Source: an uncultured Lachnospiraceae bacterium
GTDB taxonomy: Bacteria; Bacillota; Clostridia; Lachnospirales; Lachnospiraceae
Direction: 5' to 3'
Length of the DNA: 64,000 bases
Assembly: GCA_949484645.1 (NCBI GenBank)
Contig: CASYOT010000002.1
Location: 2,912-66,911, forward strand
A program made the position numbers and the translations under genes. Below the pieces are notes generated by a model. That model was not told where the DNA came from, did not search any database, and saw only the letters and a program-made list of their open reading frames with translations. This document shows positions 18,021 through 48,145 of this stretch, piece after piece; the first letter of the stretch is position 1, and each line of letters starts with the position of its first letter.

Positions 18021-19805
18021 TTAAGGCAGCATAAGTTTTTTTATTTCATCTTCTTCTAAGAAAGGATACATATCATGTAAAGCGGGAGTTTTCATTTTGC
18101 CGTTTTCATCTATGCGTGACATGACTTTTGGAATAACAGGATCGTCAAATGCCTGCAATACTTCCAGTATCATATGCTTTGTTGTCTGCATAAAAGCATG
18201 TAAGCAGGAATCCACTTCGCCATTATTATGGCAGCAAAGATATTTAAACCCGAATGTGTCTGCAATTTTTTTAAAATCAGGGAAACTTACTCCGGTATCC
18301 GGCGTACAGCCAATGTATTCTCCTTGAAAGAAGTTTTTTGAAGTCTGCCGGATTGCCCCATAACCTTCATTTGAAAAGATAACGATTGAAATTGGAAGAT
18401 CGTACTGGGCAATCGTTTGAAGTTCTTGTAGGTTCATCATTATGCTTCCGTTTCCTGTAATGCAGTATACGCCGGATTTGGAGGAGATGGCGGCGCCTAT
18501 GGCCGCGGGAATATCGTATCCCATAGATCCGCAAGTATAATTTGTAAGAATCCGTTGGTTTCTCTTTTGGGTTCCAATTTGTAATTTTGCAGTATTTGCG
18601 CTGTTGTTGCCAAGCGCTAAAATGCTGTTATCCGGTTCATGTGAATGGAACTGTTTCCAAAAATAGTAGGAAGAAACCCTGTCTGACAAATGAACGCCAT
18701 GCCGGATTGCTTCATATGGAGAAAAGCGTTCTTTTAGGTTTTGGCAGTAGGAAAGCCATTCTTTATGCGGCATACAGGGGATGACGCTCTGTCTGGCAGT
18801 TTCAAAAAACTGATTTAGGTCTATATGGAGGCTCTTTTGGATTTTAAGCCCCGGTTTTAGGGCTTCGTTTTTGTCAGCGTCTATCATATAGATTTTTGCA
18901 TTTGGGGCGAAGCCGTCTTGGTTAAACCCTGTCTGCCGGAATCCCAAACTATTTCCTAAAGTTAAGATTGCATCTGCGTTTTGCAAAATAAAATTTCCGG
19001 ATCTTGATCCCACATTTCCGGAGGAGCCGAAATAAAGGGGATGCTCCATATAGAGGTTATCGGCTACCCATGCGCCTCCAATTACAGGGAGCCGCATAGA
19101 ATCAATAAAACTTAAAAACGCTTCCATACAGTTTCCGCTTCTAATGCCGGAGCCTGCAAGGATGCAAGGGCGTTTTGCAGACTGGAATTGTTGCAGAACA
19201 GATTCTATATCTTCTTTGGGAAGATGAGGGAGGGCGCTTTGATATTCTTCCGGTTCATATAATTCGCTTTCTTCGATATTTGCGCTCTGGATATCCTGTG
19301 GGACGTCTAACCAAACGGGTCCCCGCCTTCCGTCCATAGCGATATGAATTGCTTTAACCAATTCTCTCTTTACGGCGTATGGATTAGTCAGCATTGTGGC
19401 ATATTTAGTCATATTTTGAACAGATGGGATAATTTCAAATTCTTGCAAGCCACGATAACGTAAAGGAAGGCCTGATTTTGGGACGGAAATTTCATAACGG
19501 ACTTGTCCAGACAACACAATCATGGGCAGACTGTCCTGCCATGCTCCCATCACGCCTGTTATGGCGTTGGTGGAACCGGGGCCAGAGGTGACGCAGACCG
19601 CCGCCATTTTTCCGCTGTATCTTGCATAGGCTTCTGCCGCCATGGCGCACGCCTGTTCGTGGTGGTTAAAGTATTTATTCATTTTCGGACATTTTAGCAA
19701 AGCGTTGTCTAAAAACATCGCGCCTCCGCCAACGACAGCAAAACAGTCTATAATTCCGTATTCTGTCAGTGTGTCCATAATGATGTCAGCCACTCGTTTT
19801 AACAT
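18021..19805 (-). CDS. ThDP-dependent acetolactate-synthase-like enzyme (YerE-like two-carbon branching enzyme candidate)
   Basis: 594 aa with ALS/POX family architecture; ThDP-binding GDG...N-type region in the C-terminal third (CITGNGSIMMNLQEL); N-terminal VGGGAMFL...VCVTSGPGSTNAITG; GGAGGGG RBS. Confidence 0.75.
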   Translation of the reverse strand: MLKRVADIIMDTLTEYGIIDCFAVVGGGAMFLDNALLKCPKMNKYFNHHEQACAMAAEAYARYSGKMAAVCVTSGPGSTNAITGVMGAWQDSLPMIVLSGQVRYEISVPKSGLPLRYRGLQEFEIIPSVQNMTKYATMLTNPYAVKRELVKAIHIAMDGRRGPVWLDVPQDIQSANIEESELYEPEEYQSALPHLPKEDIESVLQQFQSAKRPCILAGSGIRSGNCMEAFLSFIDSMRLPVIGGAWVADNLYMEHPLYFGSSGNVGSRSGNFILQNADAILTLGNSLGFRQTGFNQDGFAPNAKIYMIDADKNEALKPGLKIQKSLHIDLNQFFETARQSVIPCMPHKEWLSYCQNLKERFSPYEAIRHGVHLSDRVSSYYFWKQFHSHEPDNSILALGNNSANTAKLQIGTQKRNQRILTNYTCGSMGYDIPAAIGAAISSKSGVYCITGNGSIMMNLQELQTIAQYDLPISIVIFSNEGYGAIRQTSKNFFQGEYIGCTPDTGVSFPDFKKIADTFGFKYLCCHNNGEVDSCLHAFMQTTKHMILEVLQAFDDPVIPKVMSRIDENGKMKTPALHDMYPFLEEDEIKKLMLP

Positions 19806-19897
19806 CTTAACGCCCCTCCAAATTTAGCTTTCGATAATTCATAACATAATTTTATATTGTTATATGGGAATTGTAAATATATATTTCTGAAAATTGT

Positions 19898-20785
19898 TTA
19901 ATAGAGTAACTGGAATAAATCTATTTCATCTTCATGTTCCAAATACCATTGATATAACTGGCGGACGGAATCTTCTATAGGCGTATATTCAAAACCGGTA
20001 AGTTCTTCCATTAAACGGGCGTTTGAAGCGGTATATTCTTTTGCCAGCCCTTCTTTACAAATGTAAATGGGGAGCTCTTTTCCGCTGATTTTTAGGACAA
20101 GGCGGCAGAGCTTTTCTAAACTGATTTTCTTTCCCGAGACGGCGTTATAGGTATGGCGGGTTGGGGCGTGATGCAAAAAATATTCTATGATCCGGCAAAA
20201 GTCTTCTACCCAGATGTAATCGAAATACACATTCTGCCGTATAGATAACGGCAGGTTTTTTATCGCTTTACAGCAGATATTTGAAATGAACTTCACGGGA
20301 TAATATTCATATTTCCCGAATATTCCGAAAAGCCGGAAGTTATAAACGTTGTCTGATTTTTCAATTAATTCCCCTATTGTATATTTCATCAAACCGTATT
20401 GGTCAGTCGGAAGGCTTTTGCCTAAATCTGTTTCCGCTACATTGGCAATGTCGAACCGTTTGTCATATTCTGCGCCTGAGCCAGAATAATACATCCTGCC
20501 AAAGAGATGGGAATTTTTATAGAAATTAAAAAAGATCCGCATATTATATTCAAATATTTTCGAACCGTCTTTCGATTTGTCTATGCTGTCGCCATATGAG
20601 GCAAAATGGAGGATGTAATCAAATCTGTGGGCTTTTAAATATTGTAATGTTTCCGTTTCTTCTATGCAGTTTAGCTCTTTGCTTGACGGAGTGTATATAT
20701 CATAATTACGGTCGTTTTTCTGGAGATATTCTTTTACGTTTCTGCCAACAAAACCGCTGGCTCCGGTAATTAATATTTTTGGCAT
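19898..20785 (-). CDS. short NAD(P)-dependent epimerase/reductase (SDR, RmlD/GDP-fucose-synthase-like size)
   Basis: MPKILITGASGFVGRNV Rossmann motif; 295 aa; paralog of 24661..25542 (shared ISNCCCKAIK...YFDY.W.EDFCRI segments). Confidence 0.7.
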   Translation of the reverse strand: MPKILITGASGFVGRNVKEYLQKNDRNYDIYTPSSKELNCIEETETLQYLKAHRFDYILHFASYGDSIDKSKDGSKIFEYNMRIFFNFYKNSHLFGRMYYSGSGAEYDKRFDIANVAETDLGKSLPTDQYGLMKYTIGELIEKSDNVYNFRLFGIFGKYEYYPVKFISNICCKAIKNLPLSIRQNVYFDYIWVEDFCRIIEYFLHHAPTRHTYNAVSGKKISLEKLCRLVLKISGKELPIYICKEGLAKEYTASNARLMEELTGFEYTPIEDSVRQLYQWYLEHEDEIDLFQLLY

Positions 20786-20955
20786 AATGTCCTCTTTTCC
20801 GAATATACAATTTTAGTTACATTTAGGGGGATGCAGCAATTAAAAAACCCTAATACTATATCGGCAATTTTTGGGGAAACATGAGAAGCGGTTGTTACGG
20901 AAAAGTTATATTTGTCCGATATAAAAATAAAGTATGGGAAAGGATGAGGGGGAAA

Positions 20956-22641
20956 ATGAGAGAAGATGAGCTTTTAGAATATGGAATACAGCAGTTTGAG
21001 AAAGAAATATACGAGGAAGCTTTAGAAGCGTTCGTTTTATTACATATGAGAGAATATAACCAAGAGGAAATCTTAAAGAATATCTATTCGTGTTATATGG
21101 AAGGGAATGAGGGGCAGTTTCGGGAGACATATGGACGTTGTAGTATTTTTAAGGAGATTCCCTATGAAGAATGTTTGCTCGATTTTGTTCCATATAAAGA
21201 AGGGGAATATTTTATTTATGATAAATTAAAAAGGGGGTTTTTGGGAACTCTTTCTTTGCCTGAAATTGAGCGTGAAAAAGAGCTGAATAGAGAATTTGAT
21301 GATATTGCGGTAGAACTTGACTGGGACTGGCGGTTGTTTAAGCCTGCTTTGAAGTGGACGGGCAAACATAAACTATACGCCATATGCCATGACAAACGGC
21401 GCTCGGTTTCATTCTGTAAGATCCCTGAAATGGAAAAATATTTTCAGAAGGTGTTTGCGTTTGGGGATCGAGAAGAATACCGGCAATATTTCCATACAAA
21501 TACCAGCGTATTTTTGCCACGTTTTTTTTGGGGGAATCAGGATGACAAACTTGCTTTGGCGCATATATGGGAGGAGGAGCACGCTTACCGTCTTACGCCT
21601 CAGGGAAGGAATACAGAGAATGTTGTGTTGTCAATCGGGATACCGACGCATGACCGTGGGAATTTAGCTTTGGAAAAAGTGGTAAATTTGCTGACGATGT
21701 GTTATGACGCAGAAATAGAAATACTGGTTTCTAAAAATGGTATGGCGTTATATCAAGAGGAATATCGTAAAATTGCCGCAATTTCTGATGCGAGGCTTCG
21801 TTATGTGGATCATAATAAGGAACTGACGGCGGATATTTCATGGATAAAAACGGTTGAGCTGTCGAAAGGACGGTTTACGTTGCTGGTCAGTGATGAGGAT
21901 AGTGTGATTATTGAAGCGCTTGATCACTATCTTTCAATGCTTTTGGAAAATCCGGAATTGATTTTTGTAAGGGCAAAAACGGCGCTGCAATATAGTTTTA
22001 TCACGACAAAGGAGATGAAAAAAGGAATAGACGCCTTTTCTCAGGTTTTTCTCCAGAATAATTATTTATCCGGCGCAATTTTAAGACGGGAGGCTTTTAT
22101 GCGGCTTCCATTTGAAAAAATTAAAGAGGAGGCCAAAAGCAATGCGTATTATATTTCATATACGCATGAATGGTGGTTTTGCTTTTTAAGTTTCGAAGGA
22201 GATTGCCGTTTGGATGGAGAATGTCTTGTTGAAGAAGGAGACTCTGTACGGGAGAAACAGGGGGAGCAGTACAAAAAACGGGGAGAAGACGCATTGTCTG
22301 CCGGATATGATTCAGATGGGGGCCTGCAAAGTTATGCCACATATGAGAGCAGGCTGGAACAATTTAAAGGATACATTGAGTTTATTCACTATATAGAGGG
22401 AAAAGGCGGGGGAAATCTGGCGCAAAAAGGGGTTAAACTTGCAATCAACAAAACAATCAGTCTGATTAAATTGGCGTATTTTGGATTTCATTATAAGACA
22501 GATGAGATTATGGAAGTGTTGGACAAGTTTAGCAGGCTTTGCATATCAGCAGTGGAAGAATTTGCTTTTACTGCGGAGGAGAAAGAGTCGCTGCTTCGGA
22601 TATTGCTTCATCAAATTCAAAATGGTGGATGGGAAATATAA
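20956..22641 (+). CDS. large GT2-domain protein with helical N-terminal domain (paralog 1), candidate glycosyltransferase
   Basis: Central VVLSIGIPTHDRGNLALEKV...LLVSDED segment resembles a GT2 Rossmann/DxD region; start set to M26 (ATG 20956) with GGATGAGGGGG RBS; 562 aa. Confidence 0.55.
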   Translation: MREDELLEYGIQQFEKEIYEEALEAFVLLHMREYNQEEILKNIYSCYMEGNEGQFRETYGRCSIFKEIPYEECLLDFVPYKEGEYFIYDKLKRGFLGTLSLPEIEREKELNREFDDIAVELDWDWRLFKPALKWTGKHKLYAICHDKRRSVSFCKIPEMEKYFQKVFAFGDREEYRQYFHTNTSVFLPRFFWGNQDDKLALAHIWEEEHAYRLTPQGRNTENVVLSIGIPTHDRGNLALEKVVNLLTMCYDAEIEILVSKNGMALYQEEYRKIAAISDARLRYVDHNKELTADISWIKTVELSKGRFTLLVSDEDSVIIEALDHYLSMLLENPELIFVRAKTALQYSFITTKEMKKGIDAFSQVFLQNNYLSGAILRREAFMRLPFEKIKEEAKSNAYYISYTHEWWFCFLSFEGDCRLDGECLVEEGDSVREKQGEQYKKRGEDALSAGYDSDGGLQSYATYESRLEQFKGYIEFIHYIEGKGGGNLAQKGVKLAINKTISLIKLAYFGFHYKTDEIMEVLDKFSRLCISAVEEFAFTAEEKESLLRILLHQIQNGGWEI

Positions 22642-24660: not shown

Positions 24661-25542
24661 ATGAAAACGATATTAATTTTAGGATCAACCGGATTTATAG
24701 GGAGAAATTTAAAGGAATGGTTTGAGAAAAAGAAACAGTACACAGTTTTATGTCCTAATCGCAAAGAACTGGATTTGCTCGATGAAAATATGGCAGATTC
24801 CTTTTTGGCGGCGCATAAAATAGATGTGGTTTTTAATTGCGCAATATTTTCTCCAAAGTCGGAAATGGAAGAATTGGAAGTGATTGAAAAGGATTTGCGT
24901 ATGTTTCTGAACCTTGAAAAAAATAAAGATAAATTTGGCAAAATGTTTTATTTTGGCTCTGGGGCGGAATATGATAAGACAAAGCCTATTGTACAAGTGA
25001 AAGAGACGGATATTGGGAAAAGCATTCCGAAAAGCAGATATGGCATGGTAAAATATGTAATTGGACAAATGATAGATGGATCGGATAATATCTATAATAT
25101 ACGGATATGGGGTCTGTTTGGGAAGTATGAAGACTGGTGGACGACATTTATATCGAATTGCTGTTGTAAAGCAATTAAGGATTACCCAATTTCCATTCGA
25201 AAAGACACGTATTTTGATTATCTTTGGATAGAGGATTTTTGCAGAATTGCCGAATGGGCAGTTGGACATGAATTTGAGAGCCATACATACCATGCAGGGA
25301 GCGGACGGCGTATCTTACTGTCAGAAATTGCAAAAATAGTAAGGGACGTCAGCGGCAGGGAATTAGACATTGTTATTTGCAATGAGGGGTTGGGCAATGA
25401 ATATACGGCGGACAGCTCACGTCTGATGAAGGAATATGGAAAAGACTATGTTACCCCTATGGAAACGGCAATCAGGGAATTGTATACATGGTATGAAACG
25501 CATCCGGAAATTATCAGTATGCAGAAATTAATATATGGTTAA
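24661..25542 (+). CDS. short NAD(P)-dependent epimerase/reductase (SDR), paralog of 19898..20785
   Basis: MKTILILGSTGFIGRNLKEW Rossmann motif; 293 aa; conserved blocks shared with the minus-strand paralog. Confidence 0.7.
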   Translation: MKTILILGSTGFIGRNLKEWFEKKKQYTVLCPNRKELDLLDENMADSFLAAHKIDVVFNCAIFSPKSEMEELEVIEKDLRMFLNLEKNKDKFGKMFYFGSGAEYDKTKPIVQVKETDIGKSIPKSRYGMVKYVIGQMIDGSDNIYNIRIWGLFGKYEDWWTTFISNCCCKAIKDYPISIRKDTYFDYLWIEDFCRIAEWAVGHEFESHTYHAGSGRRILLSEIAKIVRDVSGRELDIVICNEGLGNEYTADSSRLMKEYGKDYVTPMETAIRELYTWYETHPEIISMQKLIYG

Positions 25543-25570: not shown

Positions 25571-26572
25571 ATGAACGATATTTTTGAAAACAAGTCAGTG
25601 CTGATTACCGGAGGGACGGGTTCTTTGGGAAAGTATTTTACAAGATACATTCTGACGCATTTTAATCCGCATCGGGTAGTGATATTTTCGCGTGATGAAT
25701 ATAAACAGAGCATGATGAAACAGGAATTTGCGCAGTATGGGGATAAGCTGAGATTTTTTATCGGTGACGTGAGGGATAAAGACAGGCTTCTAAGGGCGTT
25801 CGACAGAGTGCAGATTGTAATTCATGCAGCAGCGATTAAACAGGTGCCGACTTGTGAATATAACCCGATAGAGGCTATTAGGACGAATATTAATGGGGCG
25901 ATGAATGTCATTGACGCCGCGATTGACCGGAAGGTGGAGTGTGTTGTGGCGTTGTCAACGGACAAAGCGGTGAACCCGGTAAACTTATATGGCGGAACAA
26001 AATTAGTTTCGGACAAGCTTTTTGTGGCGGCGAATGCCTATGCAAAAATTTCAGGGACAAAATTTAGCGTTGTCCGGTATGGAAATGTGGCGGGCAGCAG
26101 GGGAAGCGTGATCCCGTTTTTTGAGAAACTTATGGCGGAAGGAAAGACAACGCTTCCGGTGACGGACGTGCGCATGACGCGGTTTTGGATTGATTTGGAG
26201 CAAGGGGTTAAATTAATTTTAAAAGCTTTATATACGGCTGTTGGCGGCGAAGTTTTCGTTTCTAAAATACCTTCTTTTAAAGTGACGGATTTGGTAAAAG
26301 CCATGAATCCGGATGGTTCCATTGAGGAAGTCGGTATCCGTGAAGGGGAAAAGCTGCATGAAGTAATGATTACAGATGTAGATTCAAGAAGGACGGTTGA
26401 ATTAGGGGACTGTTATGTGATTATGCCGGAATTTTCATGGTATAAGCCAAATGAAGAAATAAAAGCGGGGAAAAAGCTTCCAGATGAATTTGTTTATAGT
26501 TCAGATAAAAATACGAGCTGGCTTTCTGTGGAACAGCTTCAGGAAAAATTAAAATTATATCGAAAGAAATAG
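25571..26572 (+). CDS. pseB: UDP-N-acetylglucosamine 4,6-dehydratase (inverting), PseB/FlaA1/CapD family
   Basis: VLITGGTGSLGKYFTRYIL...HPHRVVIFSRDEYKQ...FFIGDVRD signature of the PseB/FlaA1 polysaccharide-biosynthesis family; 333 aa. Confidence 0.85.
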   Translation: MNDIFENKSVLITGGTGSLGKYFTRYILTHFNPHRVVIFSRDEYKQSMMKQEFAQYGDKLRFFIGDVRDKDRLLRAFDRVQIVIHAAAIKQVPTCEYNPIEAIRTNINGAMNVIDAAIDRKVECVVALSTDKAVNPVNLYGGTKLVSDKLFVAANAYAKISGTKFSVVRYGNVAGSRGSVIPFFEKLMAEGKTTLPVTDVRMTRFWIDLEQGVKLILKALYTAVGGEVFVSKIPSFKVTDLVKAMNPDGSIEEVGIREGEKLHEVMITDVDSRRTVELGDCYVIMPEFSWYKPNEEIKAGKKLPDEFVYSSDKNTSWLSVEQLQEKLKLYRKK

Positions 26573-37570: not shown

Positions 37571-38266
37571 GTGGAGGCAAAGGAGATATTCTTAACGACA
37601 GAAGGGGACGCATGGTATAGAAGAAATCGTGAAAAACTGGAAGAAACAAAAAATTTTATTGCGGCAGAGATAATCATAGAATTTTTAAACAGACAAAAGA
37701 GCGGTATGGGAATGAATGGCTTTGCATGGGAGCGTTTTAAGATTTTAGAAGTCGGATGCAGTTATGGTTATCATTTGGCAAAGTTTTGTGAAGCGTTTCC
37801 CTGCCAGTGCTATGGAATTGAGCCGTCAAAAGAAGCGGTGGAAGACGGCAGTCATAAATATAAAGGCCTGCCTATGCAGTTAGTTCAGGGGACAGGTGAT
37901 TCTCTGCCATATGAAGCGGAATCTATGGATATTGTCATTATGGGGTTTTGTATGTTTTGGATGGATAGAAATCATCTGCTGCAGGCGTATGCGGAAGCGG
38001 ACAGGGTCTTAAAACCAAAGGGATTGCTTATAATTTATGATTTTGACACGAAGCTTCCCTATGTCAGAGACAATGCGCACAGTAAAGATGTGGATACATT
38101 TAAAATGGATTATGCAAAAGCGTTGACGGCTCTGCCGCATTATTACTTAATGGATAAAACGGTGTTTTGCCATAAAGGAAATTATTTTGATGAAGATATA
38201 CAGGAAAGGATTTCCATGCAGATTCTTTATAAGGAGGATTTCAAAGATGCATATATCAGAGGGTGA
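37571..38266 (+). CDS. class I SAM-dependent methyltransferase (intact tandem paralog)
   Basis: ILEVGCSYGYHLAKF motif I and VIMGFCMFWMD; 231 aa; GTG start at 37571 as in the track, with no in-frame ATG before it. Confidence 0.65.
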   Translation: MEAKEIFLTTEGDAWYRRNREKLEETKNFIAAEIIIEFLNRQKSGMGMNGFAWERFKILEVGCSYGYHLAKFCEAFPCQCYGIEPSKEAVEDGSHKYKGLPMQLVQGTGDSLPYEAESMDIVIMGFCMFWMDRNHLLQAYAEADRVLKPKGLLIIYDFDTKLPYVRDNAHSKDVDTFKMDYAKALTALPHYYLMDKTVFCHKGNYFDEDIQERISMQILYKEDFKDAYIRG

Positions 38267-39038: not shown

Positions 39039-39051
39039 GGAGGGGTAAAGT

Positions 39052-40386: not shown

Positions 40387-41427
40387 ATGGAAATGAAAAT
40401 GTATCAGCTTATGAAAGAGCGCGCCTATGTAATTGCGGAAATGTCGGCAAATCATGCGGGCTCGAAAGAAACCGCGGTAAAACTAATTCATGCAGCGAAA
40501 ATGGCGGGAGCGGACTGTGTGAAAATACAGACTTACACGGCGGATACGATGACGTTAGATTGTGATAACGCATATTTTCATATTGGAGATGGGACATGGA
40601 AAGGCGATACACTGTATTCTTTGTATGAAAAAGCGTATATGCCATGGGAATGGCAGGCGGAATTAAAGGAGGTCACAGAGACATTAGGCATGGATTTTTT
40701 GTCCACTCCATTTGATAAGACGTCGGTGGATTTTTTGGAAAGCCTTGACGTGGCGGCGTATAAGATTGCATCGTTTGAGCTGACAGATCTTCCGCTGATT
40801 CAGTATGTGGCATCGAAAGGAAAACCGGTGATTCTGTCGACGGGCATGGCGGAGTTGTATGAAATAGACGAAGCTGTAAAAACAATCCAGAGGGAACATA
40901 ATTCTCAAATTATTTTAATGCACTGCGCAAGCGCGTATCCGGCGATTACAGAGGATATGAATTTGTATACAATGCAAAATCTAAAAGAGGTTTATCAAGT
41001 TCCGGTCGGGCTGTCCGATCATTCCATGGGTTCTGTCGGAGCCATTACAGCGGTGGCGTTAGGCGCGCAAATTATTGAAAAACATTTTTGCCTTGACCGG
41101 GCCATTGAAACGCCGGATTCCTCATTTTCCATGAACCCTGCTGAGTTTCGGCAGATGGTATGTGACATACGGCAGGCGGAAAAAGCGTTAGGATCGGTCC
41201 GGTATGGGGTGAAAAGCCAAGAAAATCCAAATCTTGGCTTTAGGAGGTCTATTTTTGTCACCCAAGACATTAAAAAGGGGCAGAAGCTGACAGAAGAAAA
41301 TATCCGGGTGATTCGGCCGGGATATGGGGCGCCGCCTAAATTTTATGGGGAAGCCTTGGGACAGACGGCTTTAAGTGACCTGAAAAGAGGCACACCTCTT
41401 AAGATTTCGGATATAGGAAGTGTGTAA
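40387..41427 (+). CDS. pseI: nonulosonic acid synthase, NeuB family (pseudaminic acid synthase candidate)
   Basis: YVIAEMSANHAGSKETAVKLIHAAKMAGADCVKIQTY NeuB N-terminal TIM-barrel signature and C-terminal SAF domain (IFVTQDIKKGQKLTEENIRVIRPG); syntenic with pseG/C/H. Confidence 0.8.
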   Translation: MEMKMYQLMKERAYVIAEMSANHAGSKETAVKLIHAAKMAGADCVKIQTYTADTMTLDCDNAYFHIGDGTWKGDTLYSLYEKAYMPWEWQAELKEVTETLGMDFLSTPFDKTSVDFLESLDVAAYKIASFELTDLPLIQYVASKGKPVILSTGMAELYEIDEAVKTIQREHNSQIILMHCASAYPAITEDMNLYTMQNLKEVYQVPVGLSDHSMGSVGAITAVALGAQIIEKHFCLDRAIETPDSSFSMNPAEFRQMVCDIRQAEKALGSVRYGVKSQENPNLGFRRSIFVTQDIKKGQKLTEENIRVIRPGYGAPPKFYGEALGQTALSDLKRGTPLKISDIGSV

Positions 41428-41442: not shown

Positions 41443-42447
41443 ATGAAAAAAAGAGTGTATATCCGGGCGGACATGAACCCTCAAATAGCGACCGGCCATA
41501 TCAGGCGCTGCCTTGCAATTTCAGACGCGGTCAGGGAACTTGGGGGAGAGGCGGTTTTTTTGACGGCGGATTTTAATGCAAAACGGCTGTTAGAAGAACA
41601 TGGGCTAAGATATTATGTTTTAAACAGCAGATGGGATAGGATGCAAGATGAATTAGAGACATTGTATCAGATAATCCAGAAAGAAAATATAGATACATTA
41701 TTAATTGACAGTTATCAGGTTACAAAAAAGTATTTGGAAAATCTTAAGAAAGCTGTTAAAATTGTATTGCTGGATGATTTATTTTTGTTTGATTATCCGG
41801 CAGACGAAATCATATGTTACGCAAATTACTGCCATCAGTTTCCCTATGATAAAAAAAGATATGAAAACTTATATTTGGGCATGGACTATACACCCCTGCG
41901 GCGTGTGTTTTGGAAGCCCGAAAAGAAGGAAATCCGAAAAGAAATCAGGCGGGTTTTGGTCTGTTCCGGTGGCAGTGATATGTTTGGGGCGATAGAAACG
42001 ATAGTGGGGAAATTAAAAGATCGGTATGAGTGTATCGATGCAGTTTGCGGATTGTATTCTGATTCGTATGAAAAGCTGTTGGAAACTTATGGAGGATATA
42101 AAAATATCCGAATCGTAAAAGACGTAAAAGATATTGAAACTTATATGCTTCAGGCAGATGTGGCAATTTCTGCGGGCGGGACTGCGTTGTATGAATTATG
42201 CGCAGTTGGCGCGCCGGCCATTTCTTATGCAATAGCGGACAACCAGCTTAAAAATGTTATGCAGTTTGAAAAAGACGGTCTCATTTCATATGCCGGGGAC
42301 ATACGGCGGGAAGATATTAGTGAAAACGTTTTAACTTATTTAGAGAAATATGAGAGCCAAACGACGCGCAGCGAATTGTCACGGAAAATGCAAAGCGCTG
42401 TTGATGGAAAGGGCGCGGTTAGGATTGCAAAGGCTCTCATGGAATAG
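41443..42447 (+). CDS. pseG: UDP-2,4-diacetamido-2,4,6-trideoxy-beta-L-altropyranose hydrolase (PseG, GT-B/MurG-like)
   Basis: RADMNPQIATGHIRRCLAISDAV matches the PseG N-terminal signature (R.D.s..iG.GH..R.L.La); 334 aa. Confidence 0.75.
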   Translation: MKKRVYIRADMNPQIATGHIRRCLAISDAVRELGGEAVFLTADFNAKRLLEEHGLRYYVLNSRWDRMQDELETLYQIIQKENIDTLLIDSYQVTKKYLENLKKAVKIVLLDDLFLFDYPADEIICYANYCHQFPYDKKRYENLYLGMDYTPLRRVFWKPEKKEIRKEIRRVLVCSGGSDMFGAIETIVGKLKDRYECIDAVCGLYSDSYEKLLETYGGYKNIRIVKDVKDIETYMLQADVAISAGGTALYELCAVGAPAISYAIADNQLKNVMQFEKDGLISYAGDIRREDISENVLTYLEKYESQTTRSELSRKMQSAVDGKGAVRIAKALME

Positions 42448-42453
42448 AAGCAG

Positions 42454-43584
42454 GTGATGAAAATGTATATTCCATATGGAAAGCAGTTTATAGATGAAGA
42501 AGATATAGCGGCAGTGGTTGAGACGCTGAAAAGCGATTGCATTACGACAGGCCCTAGGATAGCGGAGTTTGAGCAGGCTGTGTGTGAGTATACAGGGGCG
42601 AAATACGCGGTGGCGGTTTCGAGTGGAACGGCGGCTCTGCATATTGCCTGTCTGGCGGCAGGCATAGGAAAAGATGACGAAGCAGTTACGTCTCCGATGA
42701 CATTTGCGGCATCTGCAAATTGTGTGTTGTATTGTGGGGGAAGGCCTGTTTTTGCGGACATTAAACCAGATACCTATAACTTAGATCCGAATGACGTTAG
42801 AAGGAAAATAACGAATAAGACGAAAGCGGTCATTGCGGTAGATTATACAGGGCAGCCGTGTGAGTTGGAAGAATTAAAACAAATTGCAAAAGAACGTCAG
42901 TTGTATTTGATTGAAGATGCGGCTCATGCCATAGGGGCGGAATACAAGGGCAGGCGGGTAGGCTCAATTTCTGATATGACGACATTCAGTCTGCATCCGG
43001 TTAAACATATTACGAGCGGAGAGGGCGGCATTGTAACGACAAATAATAAGGAACTCTATAAAAAATTGATTTTATTCCGGAATCATGGTATAACAAGAGA
43101 GAGAGAAGCTATGACGAAAATGGAAGGCGGCTGGTATTACGAACAGTTAGATTTGGGGTATAATTACCGGATTACTGATTTTCAGTGCGCGCTTGCCGCA
43201 TCACAGCTTAAAAAATTAGATCGGTTTATACAAAAAAGGACGGAACTTGCCGGACGCTATGAGTATGCGTTTCAAGATATGGAAGATGTCGTTTGCCCGT
43301 ATCAAAAAGAAGGATGCAAAAACAGTTGGCATTTATATGTGATACAGGTGAAAAACAGGGCAGAGACATTCCGGAAAATGAGAGAAGCCGGGATTGGCGT
43401 AAATGTGCACTATATTCCGGTTTATAAGCATCCGTATTATCAGAGCCTTGGATATGGAAATGTAGAATGTAAAAATGCAGAATCGCTATATCAGCATATT
43501 ATCAGTTTGCCTCTCTATTATATGCTTACATATGAACAGCAGGATTATGTGATTGGGCAGTTAAAGAAAATTTTAATGGGATAA
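42454..43584 (+). CDS. pseC: DegT/DnrJ/EryC1-family PLP aminotransferase (PseC-like UDP-4-keto-6-deoxy sugar aminotransferase)
   Basis: IPYGKQFIDEEDIAAVVETLKSDCITTGPRIAEFEQAV...AVSSGTAALHIA typical of PseC/DegT; 376 aa. Confidence 0.8.
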   Translation: MMKMYIPYGKQFIDEEDIAAVVETLKSDCITTGPRIAEFEQAVCEYTGAKYAVAVSSGTAALHIACLAAGIGKDDEAVTSPMTFAASANCVLYCGGRPVFADIKPDTYNLDPNDVRRKITNKTKAVIAVDYTGQPCELEELKQIAKERQLYLIEDAAHAIGAEYKGRRVGSISDMTTFSLHPVKHITSGEGGIVTTNNKELYKKLILFRNHGITREREAMTKMEGGWYYEQLDLGYNYRITDFQCALAASQLKKLDRFIQKRTELAGRYEYAFQDMEDVVCPYQKEGCKNSWHLYVIQVKNRAETFRKMREAGIGVNVHYIPVYKHPYYQSLGYGNVECKNAESLYQHIISLPLYYMLTYEQQDYVIGQLKKILMG

Positions 43585-43594
43585 GGGGCATTTT

Positions 43595-44047
43595 ATGGAA
43601 GGTTATTTGAAAGCGGCGGAAGAATCAGATATGGATATTTTGTTTGAATGGGCGAATGACCCCATTGTCCGCCAAAATTCTTTCCATTCAGAAAGAATAC
43701 TTTATGAGGATCATAAGAAATGGTTTTATGGCATATTAGAGGGCAGTGGATGCAGGCAATATATTTATATTTGTAATAATGAAAAAATCGGACAGGCGCG
43801 TATTACAGTAAACGGATTTGAAGCAGAAATTTCGTATAGCATATGTCCGCAAAAAAGAAATCAGGGGCATGGGGCAAAGTTATTACAGTTAATCTATCGG
43901 CAAGTGAAAGAGGAGTTTCCTCAGATTCGGAAATTGATAGGAAAAGTCAAACCAGAAAATATTGCGTCTGCCAAAGCGTTTCTTCACGCAGGTTATGGGG
44001 AGCAGTATTCTGTTTATGAAAGGCAGATGGAGTTACAGGCAGAGTAA
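43595..44047 (+). CDS. pseH: GNAT-family N-acetyltransferase (PseH-like)
   Basis: 150 aa; ILFEWANDPIVRQNSF N-terminus and GNAT core (RNQGHGAKLL); position directly after pseC. Confidence 0.65.
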   Translation: MEGYLKAAEESDMDILFEWANDPIVRQNSFHSERILYEDHKKWFYGILEGSGCRQYIYICNNEKIGQARITVNGFEAEISYSICPQKRNQGHGAKLLQLIYRQVKEEFPQIRKLIGKVKPENIASAKAFLHAGYGEQYSVYERQMELQAE

Positions 44048-44128: not shown

Positions 44129-44908
44129 ATGAAAGTGATTATTTTGGCAGGCGGGCTGCCAAGCACATTAATTGAAGAAGATGAAAAAATGCCGAAACCT
44201 ATGGCGGAAATTGGCGGAAGGCCGATGCTTTGGCACATTATGAAACAATATTCGTATTATGGCTACAATGAATTTATTATTTGCACCGGTTATAAGGGTG
44301 ACGTGATCAAAGAGTATTTTATGAATTTTTATATCTATCAATCGGACATCACGGTGGATTTACAGACGAATGCCGTTAAACTGCATAGAAAACAAACGGA
44401 AGATTGGAAAGTGTCTATTATAGATACGGGATTGTCTTCTTCTATTATTGACCGCTTGTATATGATACGGGACTATATTGAGCAGGAAGCCGCTCTGGTT
44501 TCTTATGGAGACTGCCTTTCAGATATCAACATTGCGAAAATGGCAGAAGAACATAAAAGACACAAAAAAGCCGCGACATTTGCCGCCGCGCATCCAACTG
44601 GGAGAAATGAGATTCTGCCGATGAATGACATTGGGGAATATCACAGTTTACAGCAAAGCGGGATAAAGGAAGATGCGTGGGTAAACGCCTGCAATATGAT
44701 TTTAGAGCCACAGGCGTTTGATTCTATAGGAAACAGCATAAAACAGTCTATGCCCCTGCCCTTGATTGACTGTCTGGCGACTCAAGGGGGGATACATATG
44801 TACCGCCATAGTGGTTTTTGGTCTCCGGTTGAGACGGTAAGGGATAAAACTTGGCTGGAAGGTTTGTGGGCTCAGGGACAAGCACCGTGGAAGGTTTGGG
44901 AAGACTAG
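44129..44908 (+). CDS. glucose-1-phosphate cytidylyltransferase-like protein with degenerate nucleotide-binding loop
   Basis: Aligns with the RfbF-like protein at 46012 (MKVIILAGG...KPMAEIGGRPMLWHIMKQYSYYG..EFIICTGYKG..IKEYF.N.Y) but the G-loop reads GGLPSTL instead of GGKGTRI. Confidence 0.6.
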   Translation: MKVIILAGGLPSTLIEEDEKMPKPMAEIGGRPMLWHIMKQYSYYGYNEFIICTGYKGDVIKEYFMNFYIYQSDITVDLQTNAVKLHRKQTEDWKVSIIDTGLSSSIIDRLYMIRDYIEQEAALVSYGDCLSDINIAKMAEEHKRHKKAATFAAAHPTGRNEILPMNDIGEYHSLQQSGIKEDAWVNACNMILEPQAFDSIGNSIKQSMPLPLIDCLATQGGIHMYRHSGFWSPVETVRDKTWLEGLWAQGQAPWKVWED

Positions 44909-44953: not shown

Positions 44954-46015
44954 TTGAGTATATTGGATTTTTACCGGGATAAAACTGTTTTAGTCACGGG
45001 CCATACCGGATTTAAAGGAAGCTGGCTGTGCGTGATGCTTCAAATGGCAGGCGCAAATGTAGTAGGTTATGCGTTAAAGCCGGAAAGGGAATCACTGTAT
45101 GCGTTATCAAAAGCGGGCAGGCAGATGGAGTCCGTTGAAGGAGATGTCCGTGATTTAAACCATTTAAAGTCTGTATTCCGGCAATATCAGCCGGAGCTGG
45201 TATTTCATTTAGCGGCTCAGCCTATTGTACGGACAAGTTATGAAGATCCTGTCTTTACCTATGAAACAAACGTAATGGGAACGGTCAATCTGTTAGAGAG
45301 CGTAAGAACAGTTTCAAGCGTTGCCGCAATTTTAAATGTCACAACCGATAAAGTTTATGAAAACAGGGAATGGGAGTGGGGCTACCGTGAAACAGATCCG
45401 TTAGACGGATATGATCCTTACTCAAACAGCAAATCCTGTTCGGAATTGGTAACGCACAGCTACAAGAAATCTTTTTTCGATTCCATGGGAACCGCAGTTT
45501 CTACGGCAAGGGCAGGAAATGTCATTGGCGGCGGGGATTTTGCAAAAGACCGGATTATTCCGGACTGCATACGGGCGGCAATGGAAGGGAAAGAAATTGT
45601 AATCCGCAACCCATACTCGATACGGCCGTTCCAGCATGTGTTAGAGCCGCTTGGCGCCTATTTAATGATTATGCAACAGCAGGCGCGTTTTCCGGAAAAA
45701 CAGGGATATTATAATGTGGGGCCAGAGGAAGGAGACTGCATTACGGTAGGCGCATTAGCGGATTTGTTTTGTGAAGAATGGAAAGACGGCGCTTCTTGGA
45801 AAAATATTTGTGACGAAGGCCCTCACGAAGCGGCCTATTTAAAACTGGACTGTTCTCACATAAAACATAACATCGGCTGGAAACCCCGCTGGAATATCCA
45901 AAAGGCAGTGGAAAAAACGGTGGAATGGACAAAGGCATACCAGTCGCATGGAGACGTCAGGGCGTGTATGGAACGCCAGATTCATGAATTTTACAAAGGA
46001 AGAACAACGATATGA
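44954..46015 (+). CDS. rfbG: CDP-glucose 4,6-dehydratase (RfbG/DdhB-like)
   Basis: FYRDKTVLVTGHTGFKGSWL signature of CDP-glucose 4,6-dehydratase; TTG start after AAAGGAGGG RBS; 353 aa. Confidence 0.8.
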   Translation: MSILDFYRDKTVLVTGHTGFKGSWLCVMLQMAGANVVGYALKPERESLYALSKAGRQMESVEGDVRDLNHLKSVFRQYQPELVFHLAAQPIVRTSYEDPVFTYETNVMGTVNLLESVRTVSSVAAILNVTTDKVYENREWEWGYRETDPLDGYDPYSNSKSCSELVTHSYKKSFFDSMGTAVSTARAGNVIGGGDFAKDRIIPDCIRAAMEGKEIVIRNPYSIRPFQHVLEPLGAYLMIMQQQARFPEKQGYYNVGPEEGDCITVGALADLFCEEWKDGASWKNICDEGPHEAAYLKLDCSHIKHNIGWKPRWNIQKAVEKTVEWTKAYQSHGDVRACMERQIHEFYKGRTTI

Positions 46016-46785
46016 AAGTAGTCATTTTAGCGGGCGGAAAAGGGACGAGAATCAGTGAGGAGTCAAGGCTGCGTCCAAAACCAATGGTGGAAATTGGCGG
46101 AAAACCAATCCTTTGGCACATTATGCGCCAATATGCCGCATATGGATTTTGCGAGTTTATTATTTGCTGTGGCTATAAAGGGCATATGATAAAAGAATAT
46201 TTTGTCAATTATTACCGGAATAACAGCCAAATCGAAATTAGCCTGAAAAACCAGCAAGCACAGGTGTTAGTGAAAAACAGCGAGCCATGGAAAGTGACAT
46301 TGGTGGATACGGGACTTGAAACGCTGACCGCCGGCAGGATATTAAAGGTGAGGGACTATATCGGAGACGAGCCGTTTTTTCTGACGTATGGAGACGGCGT
46401 GTCCAATGTAAATATCCATGAGTTGTTGAAATTCCATAAGGAGCAAAAGAAAACCGTAACGATATCAACGACACAGCCGGAAGGCAGGTTTGGGGCATTA
46501 CAGCTCGATGGATCGGGGACGCAGATTCTTGGGTTTAAGGAAAAAGCAAGGGCGGATCAAGCTTGGGTCAACATTGGTTTTATGGCGTTAGAGCCGTCCG
46601 TTTACCCATATTTGGGAGATGGAAACGCAATGTTAGAAGCCCTTCCGTTTGAGCGGTTAGCCAGAGACGGACAAATGGCGGCATATAAACATACCGGATT
46701 TTGGTCTCCGATGGACAATATCCATGACAGGGAATATTTGGAAAAACTATGGAACAGCGGCAGCGCGCCTTGGAGAGTAGGATAG
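46012..46785 (+). CDS. rfbF: glucose-1-phosphate cytidylyltransferase (RfbF/DdhA-like)
   Basis: MKVVILAGGKGTRISEESRLRPKPMVEIGGKPILWHIM signature; 257 aa; 4-nt overlap with rfbG. Confidence 0.85.
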   Translation: MKVVILAGGKGTRISEESRLRPKPMVEIGGKPILWHIMRQYAAYGFCEFIICCGYKGHMIKEYFVNYYRNNSQIEISLKNQQAQVLVKNSEPWKVTLVDTGLETLTAGRILKVRDYIGDEPFFLTYGDGVSNVNIHELLKFHKEQKKTVTISTTQPEGRFGALQLDGSGTQILGFKEKARADQAWVNIGFMALEPSVYPYLGDGNAMLEALPFERLARDGQMAAYKHTGFWSPMDNIHDREYLEKLWNSGSAPWRVG

Positions 46786-46801
46786 AAAGGATAGGGGTAT
46801 T

Positions 46802-48145
46802 ATGTTTGAACAGAAAACAGAAGCAGAGGCAAGGGAAGAAATTCTTACAATGGTGACAGAGTATTGCAAAACATTTCATATGACGAAAAAGGAATATCAG
46901 GAAGGAGACAGGATTTCGTATGCCTCCCGCGTATATGATGAAGCGGAAATGTGGAATCTTGCAGACAGCGCATTGGAATTTTGGCTGACTTCCGGCAGGT
47001 ATACCGAGCGGTTTGAAAAAGAATTCGCAGAGTATATCGGCGTATCTTACTGTTCTCTCGTTAATTCCGGCTCGTCCGCGAATCTGCTTGCGTTTATGGC
47101 TCTTACGTCTCCGTTATTAAAAGAAAGGCGCATATGCCGCGGCGATGAAATTATTACGGTGGCGGCAGGATTCCCGACGACGGTCACGCCCTATCTGCAA
47201 TATGGCGCAGTCCCTGTTTTTTTGGATTTAACGGTTCCGCAGTATAATATCGATACGGAACAATTAGAGCGGGCATTGTCAGATAAGACAAAGGCAGTGA
47301 TGATTGCGCATACACTTGGGAATCCATTTGATTTAAAAACGGTAAAAGAATTTTGTGAGAAACATACGCTATGGCTGATAGAGGACAACTGCGATGCGCT
47401 GGGAAGCGAATATTGTTTGGATGGAGTTTGGAAAAAAACAGGCAGTGTGGGGGATATAGGAACCAGCAGTTTTTACCCGCCGCATCATATGACGATGGGG
47501 GAAGGCGGGGCGGTTTATACTGACAACCCGCTTTTACATAAAATTATCCGTTCGATGCGCGATTGGGGGCGGGATTGTATGTGCCCGTCCGGTCAGGATA
47601 ATCTATGTGGGCATCGGTTTGATAAACAGTATGGCGAATTGCCATTAGGCTATGACCATAAATATGTATATTCCCATTTTGGCTATAATTTAAAAGCGAC
47701 TGATATGCAGGCGGCAATCGGCTGCGCCCAGCTTCAAAAACTGCCGGAATTTACGAAACAAAGGAGAGCAAATTTTAAGCGGTTAAAGGAGCGGTTATCG
47801 GATTTGCAGGATAAACTGATTTTGCCGGAAGCGTGTCCGGATTCAAACCCGTCATGGTTTGGTTTTTTAATTACCTGTAAAGAAGGCGTGGATAAAAATC
47901 AAATCGTTTCTTATTTAGAAGAACATGGCGTACAGACCAGAATGTTATTTTCCGGAAACTTAACGAAACAGCCTTGTTTTGATGAATTGCGTAAGTCAAA
48001 AGAGGGCTACCGGATTGTGGATACGCTGAAACAGACAGACATTATTATGGAAAGAAGTTTTTGGATTGGCGTATATCCCGGAATGACGGATAAGAAGATT
48101 GACGCTATGGCAAAACTGTTAAAGGAAGCGGTGGCGTCCATTTGA
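46802..48145 (+). CDS. rfbH: CDP-6-deoxy-D-xylo-4-hexulose-3-dehydrase (E1, RfbH/DdhC-like, PMP-dependent)
   Basis: 447 aa DegT-fold protein with the RfbH-type N-terminus (...YASRVYDEAEMWNLADSALEFWLTSGRY...EFAEYIGVSYCSLVNSGSSANLLAF). Confidence 0.8.
   Translation: MFEQKTEAEAREEILTMVTEYCKTFHMTKKEYQEGDRISYASRVYDEAEMWNLADSALEFWLTSGRYTERFEKEFAEYIGVSYCSLVNSGSSANLLAFMALTSPLLKERRICRGDEIITVAAGFPTTVTPYLQYGAVPVFLDLTVPQYNIDTEQLERALSDKTKAVMIAHTLGNPFDLKTVKEFCEKHTLWLIEDNCDALGSEYCLDGVWKKTGSVGDIGTSSFYPPHHMTMGEGGAVYTDNPLLHKIIRSMRDWGRDCMCPSGQDNLCGHRFDKQYGELPLGYDHKYVYSHFGYNLKATDMQAAIGCAQLQKLPEFTKQRRANFKRLKERLSDLQDKLILPEACPDSNPSWFGFLITCKEGVDKNQIVSYLEEHGVQTRMLFSGNLTKQPCFDELRKSKEGYRIVDTLKQTDIIMERSFWIGVYPGMTDKKIDAMAKLLKEAVASI

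Follow-up and report, generated by a model that had tools for sequence, protein, structure and literature searches.

YerE-like thiamine diphosphate carboligases beside their own reductases in a Lachnospiraceae flagellin-glycosylation island, and a possible role in branching CDP-sugars

Some O-antigens and mycobacterial lipooligosaccharides contain rare C-branched sugars that are made by thiamine diphosphate (ThDP) enzymes of the YerE type. No other decarboxylase-type ThDP enzymes are known to add to ketones that are isolated (non-activated). Their branching of CDP-4-keto-3,6-dideoxyglucose is established chemistry. Here we describe two genes for YerE-like enzymes, ThDP1 and ThDP2, in DNA of an uncultured Lachnospiraceae bacterium (GenBank assembly GCA_949484645.1, contig CASYOT010000002.1, positions 2,912 to 66,911), a stretch of 64 kb that we call the window. 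They lie in a flagellin-glycosylation island with about 55 kb of sugar-nucleotide genes, the host being a gut Lachnospiraceae; public copies bear the label 'Eubacterium sp.'. We propose YerE/YerF-like branching of a CDP-4-keto sugar by this clade of ThDP enzymes together with dedicated ketoreductases, a reading on which we find ourselves evenly divided.

Several related systems have been characterised. ErwE, MMAR_2332 and MyGE use as donors long 4-hydroxy-2-oxo acids made by cluster-encoded aldolases (PMC9306805), and JanthE is a ketone-accepting carboligase with a broad donor range (PMC12188165, PMC12247030). In Shewanella oneidensis, sfmA (NeuB-like), sfmB (a 581-aa TPP enzyme annotated as IlvB), sfmC (a reductase) and sfmD (a methyltransferase) are each required for the flagellin glycan, and the sfmABCDE operon also encodes an ATP-grasp protein (PMC3765264). 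That glycan is a mono-N-acetyl pseudaminic-like sugar to which a nitrogen-free C9H16O7 unit (236 Da) with up to two methyls is attached (PMC3765264). A survey of Clostridium flagellin islands noted RfbF/G/H/S, predicted paratose and left ThDP enzymes unmentioned (PMC13317340).

The window genes on which our reading turns, including short-chain dehydrogenase/reductases (SDR), an aldo/keto reductase (AKR) and the pyridoxamine 5'-phosphate (PMP)-dependent 3-dehydrase called E1, are as follows.
16038-16970, minus strand: SDR of the NAD-dependent epimerase/dehydratase family, 310 aa (Pfam Epimerase 3e-31; no NCBIfam equivalog)
18021-19805, minus strand: ThDP1, predicted YerE-like ThDP carboligase, 594 aa (three TPP domains; GNG for GDG through D452N, plus D141N)
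19898-20785, minus strand: SDR295, RmlD/epimerase-type reductase paired with ThDP1 (Pfam Epimerase and RmlD_sub_bind)
24661-25542, plus strand: SDR293, a paralogue of SDR295, upstream of pseB (Pfam Epimerase and RmlD_sub_bind)
34126-35937, plus strand: ThDP2, predicted YerE-like ThDP carboligase, 603 aa (601 aa in public calls; three TPP domains; canonical GDG)
35913-36845, plus strand: AKR paired with ThDP2 (Pfam Aldo_ket_red 1.2e-32)
44129-44908, plus strand: second RfbF-like glucose-1-phosphate cytidylyltransferase (TIGR02623 284 bits, just below the cut-off of 300)
44954-46015, plus strand: RfbG, CDP-glucose 4,6-dehydratase (TIGR02622 438 bits, cut-off 278)
46012-46785, plus strand: RfbF, glucose-1-phosphate cytidylyltransferase (TIGR02623 359 bits, cut-off 300)
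46802-48145, plus strand: RfbH or E1, CDP-4-keto-6-deoxyglucose 3-dehydrase with PMP and [2Fe-2S] (NF011936 710 bits, cut-off 423)

To place the two ThDP proteins, we compared them with family models, solved structures and each other. An initial annotation had called them mutually alignable proteins resembling acetolactate synthase (ALS), of 594 and 603 aa, and YerE-like, not housekeeping acetohydroxyacid synthase (AHAS); both descriptions hold. The proteins are 42% identical end to end (E = 1e-166), and each contains TPP_enzyme_N, TPP_enzyme_M and TPP_enzyme_C (Pfam 1e-21 to 1e-32). The catalytic glutamate of the N domain (HHEQ) is found in both, and the cofactor motif reads GDG...NN in ThDP2 and GNG...SN in ThDP1, whose orthologues have GDG. 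Neither protein reached an AHAS or AlsS equivalog in NCBIfam, scoring 170-310 bits against cut-offs of 500-1080; TIGR00118, the best AHAS model, gave 290 and 310 bits (cut-off 538). The AHAS central-domain motif RFDDR, seen in Escherichia coli IlvB, was missing from ThDP1, ThDP2 and all 18 homologues checked, and the window open reading frames (ORFs) that we scanned included no ilvN, ilvH, ilvC or ilvD gene and no small regulatory subunit. The best match among PDB sequences was JanthE (8rph; 338 bits for ThDP1 and 340 for ThDP2), with lower scores for PpYerE (5ahk; 246 and 234 bits) and E. coli AHAS I (201 and 213 bits). ThDP2 and JanthE have a C-terminal extension in common, which PpYerE and IlvB are without. 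A small neighbour-joining tree placed ThDP1, ThDP2 and 18 homologues from other genomes in one clade, sister to JanthE; the references for the sequence comparison of the clade were JanthE, PpYerE and E. coli IlvB.

It could still be argued that two ordinary AHAS or acetolactate synthases of the IlvB or AlsS type lie inside the island by chance, since acetolactate synthase models are the top NCBIfam names and some public annotations read acetolactate synthase large subunit. We rejected this candidate: the equivalog scores fall far below the cut-offs, RFDDR and any ilv or small-subunit gene are missing from the window, orthologues always lie in sugar-nucleotide clusters, and the best structural relative, JanthE, is not an AHAS. 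Together these points leave it vanishingly improbable. The FAD features that the initial annotation offered as a mark of housekeeping IlvB would not discriminate, because YerE itself is said to have been described as a flavoprotein by Chen et al. in 1998. These comparisons lend moderate support to ThDP1 and ThDP2 as members of a distinct, widespread clade of predicted YerE-like (JanthE-related) ThDP carboligases that are not AHAS.

To determine the genomic setting of this clade, we scanned one genome per species and obtained 80 loci with ThDP homologues, numbered here with the prefix L, with flanks of up to 10 kb per side; flanks were full in 53. Neighbours were labelled by tblastn with all window proteins, and some were checked by Pfam or NCBIfam. 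Because islands can exceed 50 kb, an rfb or cytidylyltransferase gene absent from a locus need not be absent from its genome. Orthologues of both ThDP paralogues are numerous (for ThDP1, at 68% identity or more) and come with similar neighbouring genes, and the co-location is therefore not chance. Within the 80 loci rfbF was found in 37, rfbG in 30 and rfbH in 29. The contiguous, co-directional order rfbF-rfbG-rfbH-SDR-ThDP recurs in Elusimicrobium (L041), Alphaproteobacteria (L052, L061, L068, L069), Mailhella of the Desulfovibrionaceae (L053, L063), Gastranaerophilales of the Melainabacteria (L054) and an uncultured rumen bacterium (L050), and a metagenome-assembled genome of the Spirochaetes (L078) and many Firmicutes have these five genes with a few others interleaved. 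In L021, whose ThDP1 orthologue is 84% identical, rfbH-F-G-F2 immediately adjoins the SDR295-ThDP1 operon, which in the window is parted from the rfb genes by a block of about 21 kb with the pse genes and ThDP2. Of all the evidence, the recurrent gene order and the layout of L021 argue most strongly for use of the E1 product in the ThDP step.

The initial annotation had listed rfbF, rfbG and rfbH, and all three score above their NCBIfam cut-offs. The second RfbF-like cytidylyltransferase, which holds the same position in L021, may take a different hexose-1-phosphate. RfbH matched the Yersinia pseudotuberculosis E1 structure (PDB 3bcx) at 492 bits with its motifs aligned: histidine replaces the Schiff-base lysine (SFYPPHHMT), and the four [2Fe-2S] cysteines are kept as C197-x61-C259-x-C261-x7-C269, which fits C-x(57-61)-C-x-C-x7-C. 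With both features in place RfbH is a bona fide, intact E1 and should therefore be active and reductase-dependent. The same cysteine and histidine motifs occur in 29 of the 29 RfbH homologues that neighbour ThDP genes. In L073 (Romboutsia sedimentorum), L074, L057, L018 and L038, rfbF and rfbG stand near the ThDP gene without rfbH, so the acceptor there may be CDP-4-keto-6-deoxyglucose.

We also searched for E3, the reductase partner of E1 (DdhD or AscD). No Fer2, FAD_binding_6 or NAD_binding_1 domain was detected in the Pfam-scanned ORFs (most of those of at least 120 aa) between 763 and 57455; the ORFs at 57425-63395 were covered by the ferredoxin-motif scan without Pfam. Across all six frames of the window no real ORF contained the plant-type motif C-x4-C-x2-C-x20-40-C, the sole regular-expression match being antisense at the rfbF/rfbH junction. 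A six-frame scan for the ferredoxin motif likewise found no E3-like ORF in any of the 80 related loci. The initial annotation was thus right that the window lacks an evident E3, but the lack is not peculiar to this island: with none in 80 loci, E3 absence is a property of the cassette and not a gap in this island. SpnQ, an E1-type enzyme, can work with general pairs of ferredoxin or flavodoxin and reductase (PMC8987622), and by analogy such pairs are a plausible source of electrons for E1 in these mostly anaerobic hosts.

Each ThDP gene adjoins its own reductase, SDR295 for ThDP1 and the AKR for ThDP2. The three SDRs and the AKR listed above supply the candidate YerF-type SDRs and AKR that had been predicted. 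A homologue of the SDR295/SDR293 type occurs in 67 of the 80 loci, at most 300 bp from the ThDP gene in 38; in some loci SDR293 is the best match for the ThDP-adjacent SDR. The AKR gene directly follows ThDP2 orthologues in L082 and L057 and is nearby in L083. In loci with no rfb gene in reach, the SDR is still kept with ThDP in 26 of 35, and it therefore belongs to the ThDP step and not to E1. From this pattern a YerF-like role appears to fit SDR295-type proteins better than one as paratose or abequose synthase. Comparison of SDR295 with PDB sequences was uninformative.

From the domain content, the family placement, the intact E1 motifs, the absent E3 and the conserved gene order, we infer the acceptor, donor, reductase roles and electron source of the following pathway. 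RfbF and RfbG would convert glucose-1-phosphate to CDP-4-keto-6-deoxyglucose, from which E1 (RfbH) would remove the 3-hydroxyl to give CDP-4-keto-3,6-dideoxyglucose, with two electrons drawn from a housekeeping ferredoxin or flavodoxin system and no dedicated E3. The ThDP enzyme would then decarboxylate a 2-oxo acid and add the acyl-anion equivalent to the C4 ketone, forming a tertiary alcohol with a C-acyl branch. The branch carbonyl would be reduced by the partner reductase (SDR295 for ThDP1, the AKR for ThDP2), and a transferase of glycosyltransferase family 2 (GT2) would finally link this branched, CDP-activated sugar to flagellin.

The surrounding genes bear on the donor in this scheme. 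The window has complete pseudaminic-type (Pse) and legionaminic-type (Leg) gene sets, which flank the CDP-hexose genes and have one cytidylyltransferase each; the Leg-type operon is assigned from TIGR03570, TIGR03569 (486 bits, cut-off 400), TIGR03568 (435, cut-off 236) and TIGR03584 (192, below its cut-off of 206), together with Pfam. Their genes, and those around ThDP2, are listed here with S-adenosylmethionine abbreviated to SAM.
25571-26572, plus strand: PseB-type UDP-GlcNAc 4,6-dehydratase (Pfam Polysacc_synt_2 1.5e-100)
33261-34151, plus strand: protein of about 290 aa upstream of ThDP2 (weak NTP_transf_2 match only; position kept in L082 and L083)
37023-38266, plus strand: two SAM-dependent methyltransferase ORFs, 37023-37544 and 37571-38266 (Pfam Methyltransf_11, Methyltransf_25)
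38187-39038, plus strand: divergent CTP_transf_3 cytidylyltransferase of CMP-ulosonate synthetase type (Pfam 1e-28; only KdsB-type NCBIfam matches, all below cut-off)
39052-40362, plus strand: class-III aminotransferase, glutamate-1-semialdehyde (GSA) aminomutase-like (Pfam Aminotran_3; NCBIfam matches all below cut-off)
40387-41427, plus strand: PseI, pseudaminic acid synthase of the NeuB family (TIGR03586 470 bits, cut-off 340)
41443-44047, plus strand: PseG-like protein (41443-42447), PseC-type aminotransferase (42454-43584) and GNAT/PseH-like protein (43595-44047) (Pfam Glyco_tran_28_C, DegT_DnrJ_EryC1 at 9.7e-126, Acetyltransf_3)
48186-55020, plus strand: Leg-type operon with NeuD/PglD-like protein, NeuB (LegI type), NeuC (LegG type), cytidylyltransferase, PtmE-like CBS-nucleotidyltransferase, LegB-like and LegC-like proteins

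The initial annotation envisaged a yersiniose-like, two-carbon branch from pyruvate. A pyruvate donor would give a yersiniose-type sugar, but this is now one option only. NeuB-type synthases occur in 64 of the 80 loci, within 3 kb of the ThDP gene in 43, and are commoner than rfb genes, rfbH among them. In loci with full flanks, 46 of 53 have a NeuB-type gene, and of these 46 only five have a CTP_transf_3 cytidylyltransferase; no such CMP-nonulosonate synthetase was found in the remaining 41 by tblastn (E < 1e-3) and an iterated hidden Markov model (HMM), which drifted into fused PseG domains and left the same nine loci. The NeuB and NeuC genes tested are standard and pass or nearly pass NCBIfam cut-offs. 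A link to NeuB that is stronger than the link to rfb, with CMP-synthetases rare, suggests another donor or acceptor. In L032, L060, L070, L072, L075 and L076 we observed an SDR, ThDP, a fused cytidylyltransferase::PseG-like protein (about 540 aa) and a divergent NeuB about 35% identical to the window NeuB proteins.

ThDP1 orthologues are usually found within an operon of the Leg type, SDR-PtmE-ThDP1-PglD-NeuB-NeuC-LegB(-LegC), without LegF. The operons of L003, L006-L010, L013-L016, L048 and L055 contain SDR295 and ThDP1 and no cytidylyltransferase; the window operon is complementary, with a cytidylyltransferase (50964-51662) and with ThDP1 (GNG) and SDR295 29 kb away. In relatives each paralogue is associated with a different nonulosonate type. 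Some islands are compact. Elusimicrobium has rfbF-G-H-SDR-ThDP-PseB-PseC-TIM barrel-GNAT-PseI-GT2 and Mailhella rfbF-G-H-SDR-ThDP-NeuD-NeuB-NeuC-...-GT2. Romboutsia sedimentorum has FlgK-FlgL-FliW-FliS-FliD-flagellin-GT2/TPR-rfbF-rfbG-ThDP-NeuB-NeuC-SDR-methyltransferase..., and a Paenibacillus locus (L081) is laid out in the same way. L080 starts in the same way, with flagellin, a 630-aa ORF, rfbF, ThDP and NeuB up to the contig end, but rfbF is followed by ThDP without an intervening rfbG. No CMP-synthetase or Maf gene was within reach in any of these compact operons, and jackhmmer found Maf in only two of the related loci. In L041, which is Elusimicrobium posterum, the PseB homologue (11790-12810) is split into ORFs of 203 and 134 aa and an AP_endonuc_2 TIM-barrel gene stands where pseG is expected.

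Gene context thus favours an island-made 2-oxo acid as donor, and the most parsimonious candidate is a 3-deoxy-2-ulosonic (nonulosonic) acid from NeuB. As 3-deoxy-4-hydroxy-2-oxo acids, nonulosonic acids share their functional pattern with the aldolase-made donors preferred by ErwE and MMAR_2332 (PMC9306805). For the compact islands, the simplest reading is that the ThDP enzyme takes up the NeuB product. That the ThDP enzyme would decarboxylate a NeuB-made nonulosonate and join its C2 to C4 of CDP-4-keto-(3,)6-deoxyhexose is nonetheless a proposal we hold to be doubtful; equally speculative is its allocation of donors, Leg-type for ThDP1, Pse-type for ThDP2 and N-acetylneuraminic acid (Neu5Ac) in Romboutsia, Paenibacillus and Mailhella. 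If true, it would yield after ketoreduction a CDP-activated sugar of 16-18 carbons (acetyls included), a hexose fused by a C-C bond to a decarboxylated nonulosonate. CDP on the hexose would replace CMP activation and so would explain the missing CMP-nonulosonate synthetase. The residue would have a mass of 420.211 Da for a 3,6-dideoxy acceptor with Leg5Ac7Ac or Pse5Ac7Ac and of 411.174 Da for a 6-deoxy acceptor with Neu5Ac, plus 14.016 Da per O-methyl.

The same genes admit another explanation, in which the ThDP/reductase pairs do not act on a CDP-sugar and instead tailor NeuB products, as sfmABC of S. oneidensis might. For example, a pyruvate-derived two-carbon unit could be added, as by AHAS, to the 2-keto group of an ulosonic acid and the product ketoreduced to a branched aldonic acid that needs no CMP; the rfb genes would then make an ordinary 3,6-dideoxyhexose of the paratose or abequose type for the same glycan. 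The frequency of NeuB-type genes near ThDP, the lack of a CTP_transf_3 gene in 41 of 46 full NeuB loci, and the embedding of ThDP1 orthologues in Leg operons and of ThDP2 in the pse operon all speak for such tailoring. So do the genetic requirement for sfmA, sfmB, sfmC and sfmD in the S. oneidensis flagellin glycan (PMC3765264) and the plain paratose predicted for Clostridium flagellin islands with RfbF/G/H/S (PMC13317340). By our own arithmetic, C9H16O7 equals a C7 3-deoxy-heptulosonate + pyruvate - CO2 + 2H - H2O; a reduced acetolactate-type adduct would therefore match the formula of the 236-Da unit and would account for SfmA, SfmB and SfmC. However, if ThDP did not use the E1 product, the contiguous rfbF-G-H-SDR-ThDP order in at least six phyla would be difficult to account for. 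The compact islands have one or two glycosyltransferases only and no obvious ligase for a free acid, and the RfbH-adjacent SDR tracks ThDP, so that no dedicated 4-ketoreductase is left for a plain dideoxyhexose. Moreover, the nearest characterised relatives take ketones, not 2-keto acids (PMC12247030). On balance we regard tailoring of NeuB products as rather unlikely.

Branching of a CDP-sugar, which we prefer, has its own difficulties. rfbH lies within 10 kb of ThDP in only 29 of the 80 loci, 31 of the 53 full-length loci have an rfb gene of any kind, and in the window the distance to the rfb genes is 24 kb for ThDP1 and 8 kb for ThDP2. No electron donor for E1 was identified. Identity to YerE-like enzymes is about 30-33% (JanthE 32-33%, PpYerE about 30%) against 28-30% to IlvB; because these values are low and nearly equal, sequence support for the YerE-like assignment is only moderate, and the assignment leans mainly on HMM scores and gene context. 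ThDP2 lies in the pse operon, inside a methyltransferase/AKR/cytidylyltransferase/aminotransferase module that is kept in L082 and L083, a context that fits nonulosonate tailoring at least as well as CDP-sugar branching. Finally, no CDP-sugar genes were reported for the sfm operon (PMC3765264).

The ThDP2 module itself (31723-40362), which in the window sits between pseB and pseI, comprises a 521-aa methyltransferase, the protein of about 290 aa, ThDP2, the AKR, one or more methyltransferases, the divergent CTP_transf_3 cytidylyltransferase and the GSA-aminomutase-like class-III aminotransferase. A phosphonate (2-aminoethylphosphonate) pathway made up of ThDP2, the aminotransferase and the cytidylyltransferase was considered and rejected: no phosphoenolpyruvate (PEP) mutase domain was found, and the ThDP proteins are of the full ALS type, not the Ppd type. 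A tblastn search of plasmids with ThDP2 gave no match.

ThDP1 raises a separate question, whether both paralogues work in this strain. Codon 452 of its gene (18450-18452) is AAC, which puts asparagine in place of the Mg-binding aspartate of the GDG motif. The window protein (P0241) differs from the commonest allele (P0242) by D141N and D452N only; the aspartate allele was on 415 public contigs and the window's asparagine allele on 94, in many samples. Among 254 retrieved sequences with a matchable motif, 250 keep the aspartate and four have asparagine, two of which were identified as the window allele and a close variant, P0248. The initial annotation was correct that both ThDP genes are present, but it missed D452N and thus the altered motif of ThDP1. 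In Zymomonas pyruvate decarboxylase the equivalent Asp-to-Asn change reportedly abolishes cofactor binding, as Candy and Duggleby are said to have found in 1994. D452N falls within the GDG motif, and ThDP1 may therefore be impaired here. This opens the possibility, which we rate somewhat short of even, that only ThDP2 is functional, ThDP1 being a decaying or switched-off copy, and that the island makes one branched product, not two. It draws on the near-invariance of the aspartate and on D452N being one of only two changes from the commonest allele; against it, the asparagine allele is full-length, intact and persistent in the population on those 94 contigs, the asparagine carbonyl oxygen can still ligate Mg2+, and JanthE, whose motif is a non-canonical CDG, is an active enzyme (PMC12188165). 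The D/N pair of alleles hints at strain-level glycan variation.

The remaining features of the island lie at its start and around the ThDP1 operon.
1-170, plus strand: flagellin gene 3' end, C-terminal helix, last ~55 codons (direct translation of the window start)
763-2685, plus strand: Maf-type motility accessory factor of the flagellin nonulosonate transferase family (Pfam MptE-like 1.3e-34; weak Maf_flag10_N match)
14370-15182, minus strand: hexapeptide-repeat acetyltransferase-like protein at the end of the ThDP1 operon (no Pfam match; weak CysE/EpsC-type NCBIfam matches)
15062-16138, minus strand: GT2 glycosyltransferase of the ThDP1 operon (Pfam Glycos_transf_2 1.2e-27; syntenic in L002, L021 and L055)
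16981-17994, minus strand: radical SAM/SPASM protein directly downstream of ThDP1 (Pfam Radical_SAM and SPASM)
20881-22641, plus strand: 586-aa protein separating the ThDP1 operon from the remaining island genes (no Pfam match)

The island starts directly behind the flagellin gene, whose 3' end, followed by a Maf gene, makes the flagellin-glycosylation context real, and the far end of the island lies before a riboflavin operon (RibD at 56232). Parts of the ThDP1 operon are kept elsewhere: homologues of the acetyltransferase-like protein accompany ThDP homologues in 14 loci, and the radical SAM/SPASM gene adjoins ThDP1 orthologues in L002, L011 and L021, with 66% identical copies downstream in L016 and L055. 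In L021 a homologue of the 586-aa protein stands between the ThDP1 operon and rfbF2-G-F-H.

Other genes of the island form distinct groups. The region 2766-14352 is a separate sugar-tailoring block with GmhA-like and GmhB-like proteins, an SDR, an HldE-like kinase/cytidylyltransferase, two radical SAM/SPASM genes and one B12-binding radical SAM gene. It also contains a split transketolase (8239-9084 and 9066-9989), the third ThDP-dependent enzyme, possibly with a heptose as substrate. Genes of this block adjoin a ThDP1 orthologue in L004. Three proteins of 485, 476 and 409 aa, encoded at 26583-29463 and 30528-31757, recur in about 11 related loci, L033, L035, L040, L064 and L077 among them, where they adjoin ThDP/SDR/NeuB genes; they had no Pfam or PDB sequence match, and a ligase or transferase role is possible. 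In L078 a DUF386 gene (8692-9153; YhcH family, linked to sialic acid metabolism) lies between NeuB and the SDR-ThDP pair. A Wzx-type flippase follows the cassette in L078 (15450-20768), together with several downstream glycosyltransferases, and in L005 (14500-15792); the branched sugar would therefore not be restricted to flagellin.

What is new here is a separate YerE-like clade in a flagellin-glycosylation and surface-polysaccharide setting in gut anaerobes, the systematic absence of E3, a tight tie to nonulosonate synthases without CMP activation, and the presence of two paralogues in this one island, each beside its own reductase and each tied in relatives to a different nonulosonate type. 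The clade is carried by common Lachnospiraceae of the gut and by other bacteria, most of them anaerobes. This clade, its reductase, the E3-less CDP-dideoxyhexose genes and NeuB without CMP activation together predict a class of flagellar sugar so far undescribed, and the compact islands of cultured Romboutsia sedimentorum, Paenibacillus sp. TAB 01 and Elusimicrobium posterum make this prediction testable. Such sugars may account for unassigned flagellin glycan masses, for example the Shewanella 236-264-Da unit. Because flagellin from gut Lachnospiraceae is a prominent antigen of the immune system, its glycans matter for host recognition. The enzymes would also provide new carboligases for biocatalysis and, in ThDP1, a natural GDG-to-GNG allele for the study of cofactor binding.

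Compared with known systems, the locus resembles several in part. Like the operon of SfmB (SO_3262) in S. oneidensis MR-1, it brings together a NeuB-like synthase, an IlvB-like TPP enzyme, a reductase and a methyltransferase in a flagellin-glycan module: ThDP2 shares an operon with the AKR, two methyltransferases and PseI in an island that opens with flagellin and Maf. The likeness is one of operon make-up, and the sfm operon differs in its FabG-type reductase, in its ATP-grasp ligase, of which none was recognised in the window, and in having no reported CDP-hexose genes. JanthE of Janthinobacterium sp. HH01 (8rph) is the closest solved relative and has its C-terminal extension in common with ThDP2, but identity is only 32-33% and its motif is CDG, against GDG in ThDP2 and GNG in ThDP1; the likeness does not fix the substrates of the window enzymes. 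As in the erwiniose, caryophyllose and gastriose systems of ErwE, MMAR_2332 and MyGE (PMC9306805), a candidate donor enzyme is encoded in the same cluster and a reductase would act after carboligation. There, however, a class II pyruvate aldolase makes the donor, whereas here only NeuB-type, PEP-condensing synthases in the cluster give 2-oxo acids, and their C9 diacetamido or acetamido ulosonic acids are larger than any tested donor.

RfbH is like the E1 enzymes DdhC and AscC in being a PMP enzyme with histidine for lysine and a four-cysteine [2Fe-2S] motif. In contrast to the E1/E3 systems DdhC/DdhD and AscC/AscD, a true CDP-glucose-pathway E1 occurs without E3 across 29 loci from several phyla. 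SpnQ likewise has no dedicated reductase gene near it, but it is an actinomycete enzyme whose substrate is a TDP-2,6-dideoxy sugar. With YerE/YerF of Y. pseudotuberculosis (CDP-yersiniose A) we compared gene content and function. The window departs from that system in having no E3 (ddhD/ascD) gene, in serving flagellin glycosylation in Firmicutes and not an O-antigen cluster, and in ThDP proteins that form a separate clade, about 30% identical to PpYerE, with a donor that is probably not, or not only, pyruvate. What the two have in common is an ALS-like ThDP gene accompanied by genes of the ddhA/B/C type (here rfbF/G/H), a dedicated reductase beside it, and CDP-4-keto-3,6-dideoxyglucose, the E1 product, as the expected acceptor.

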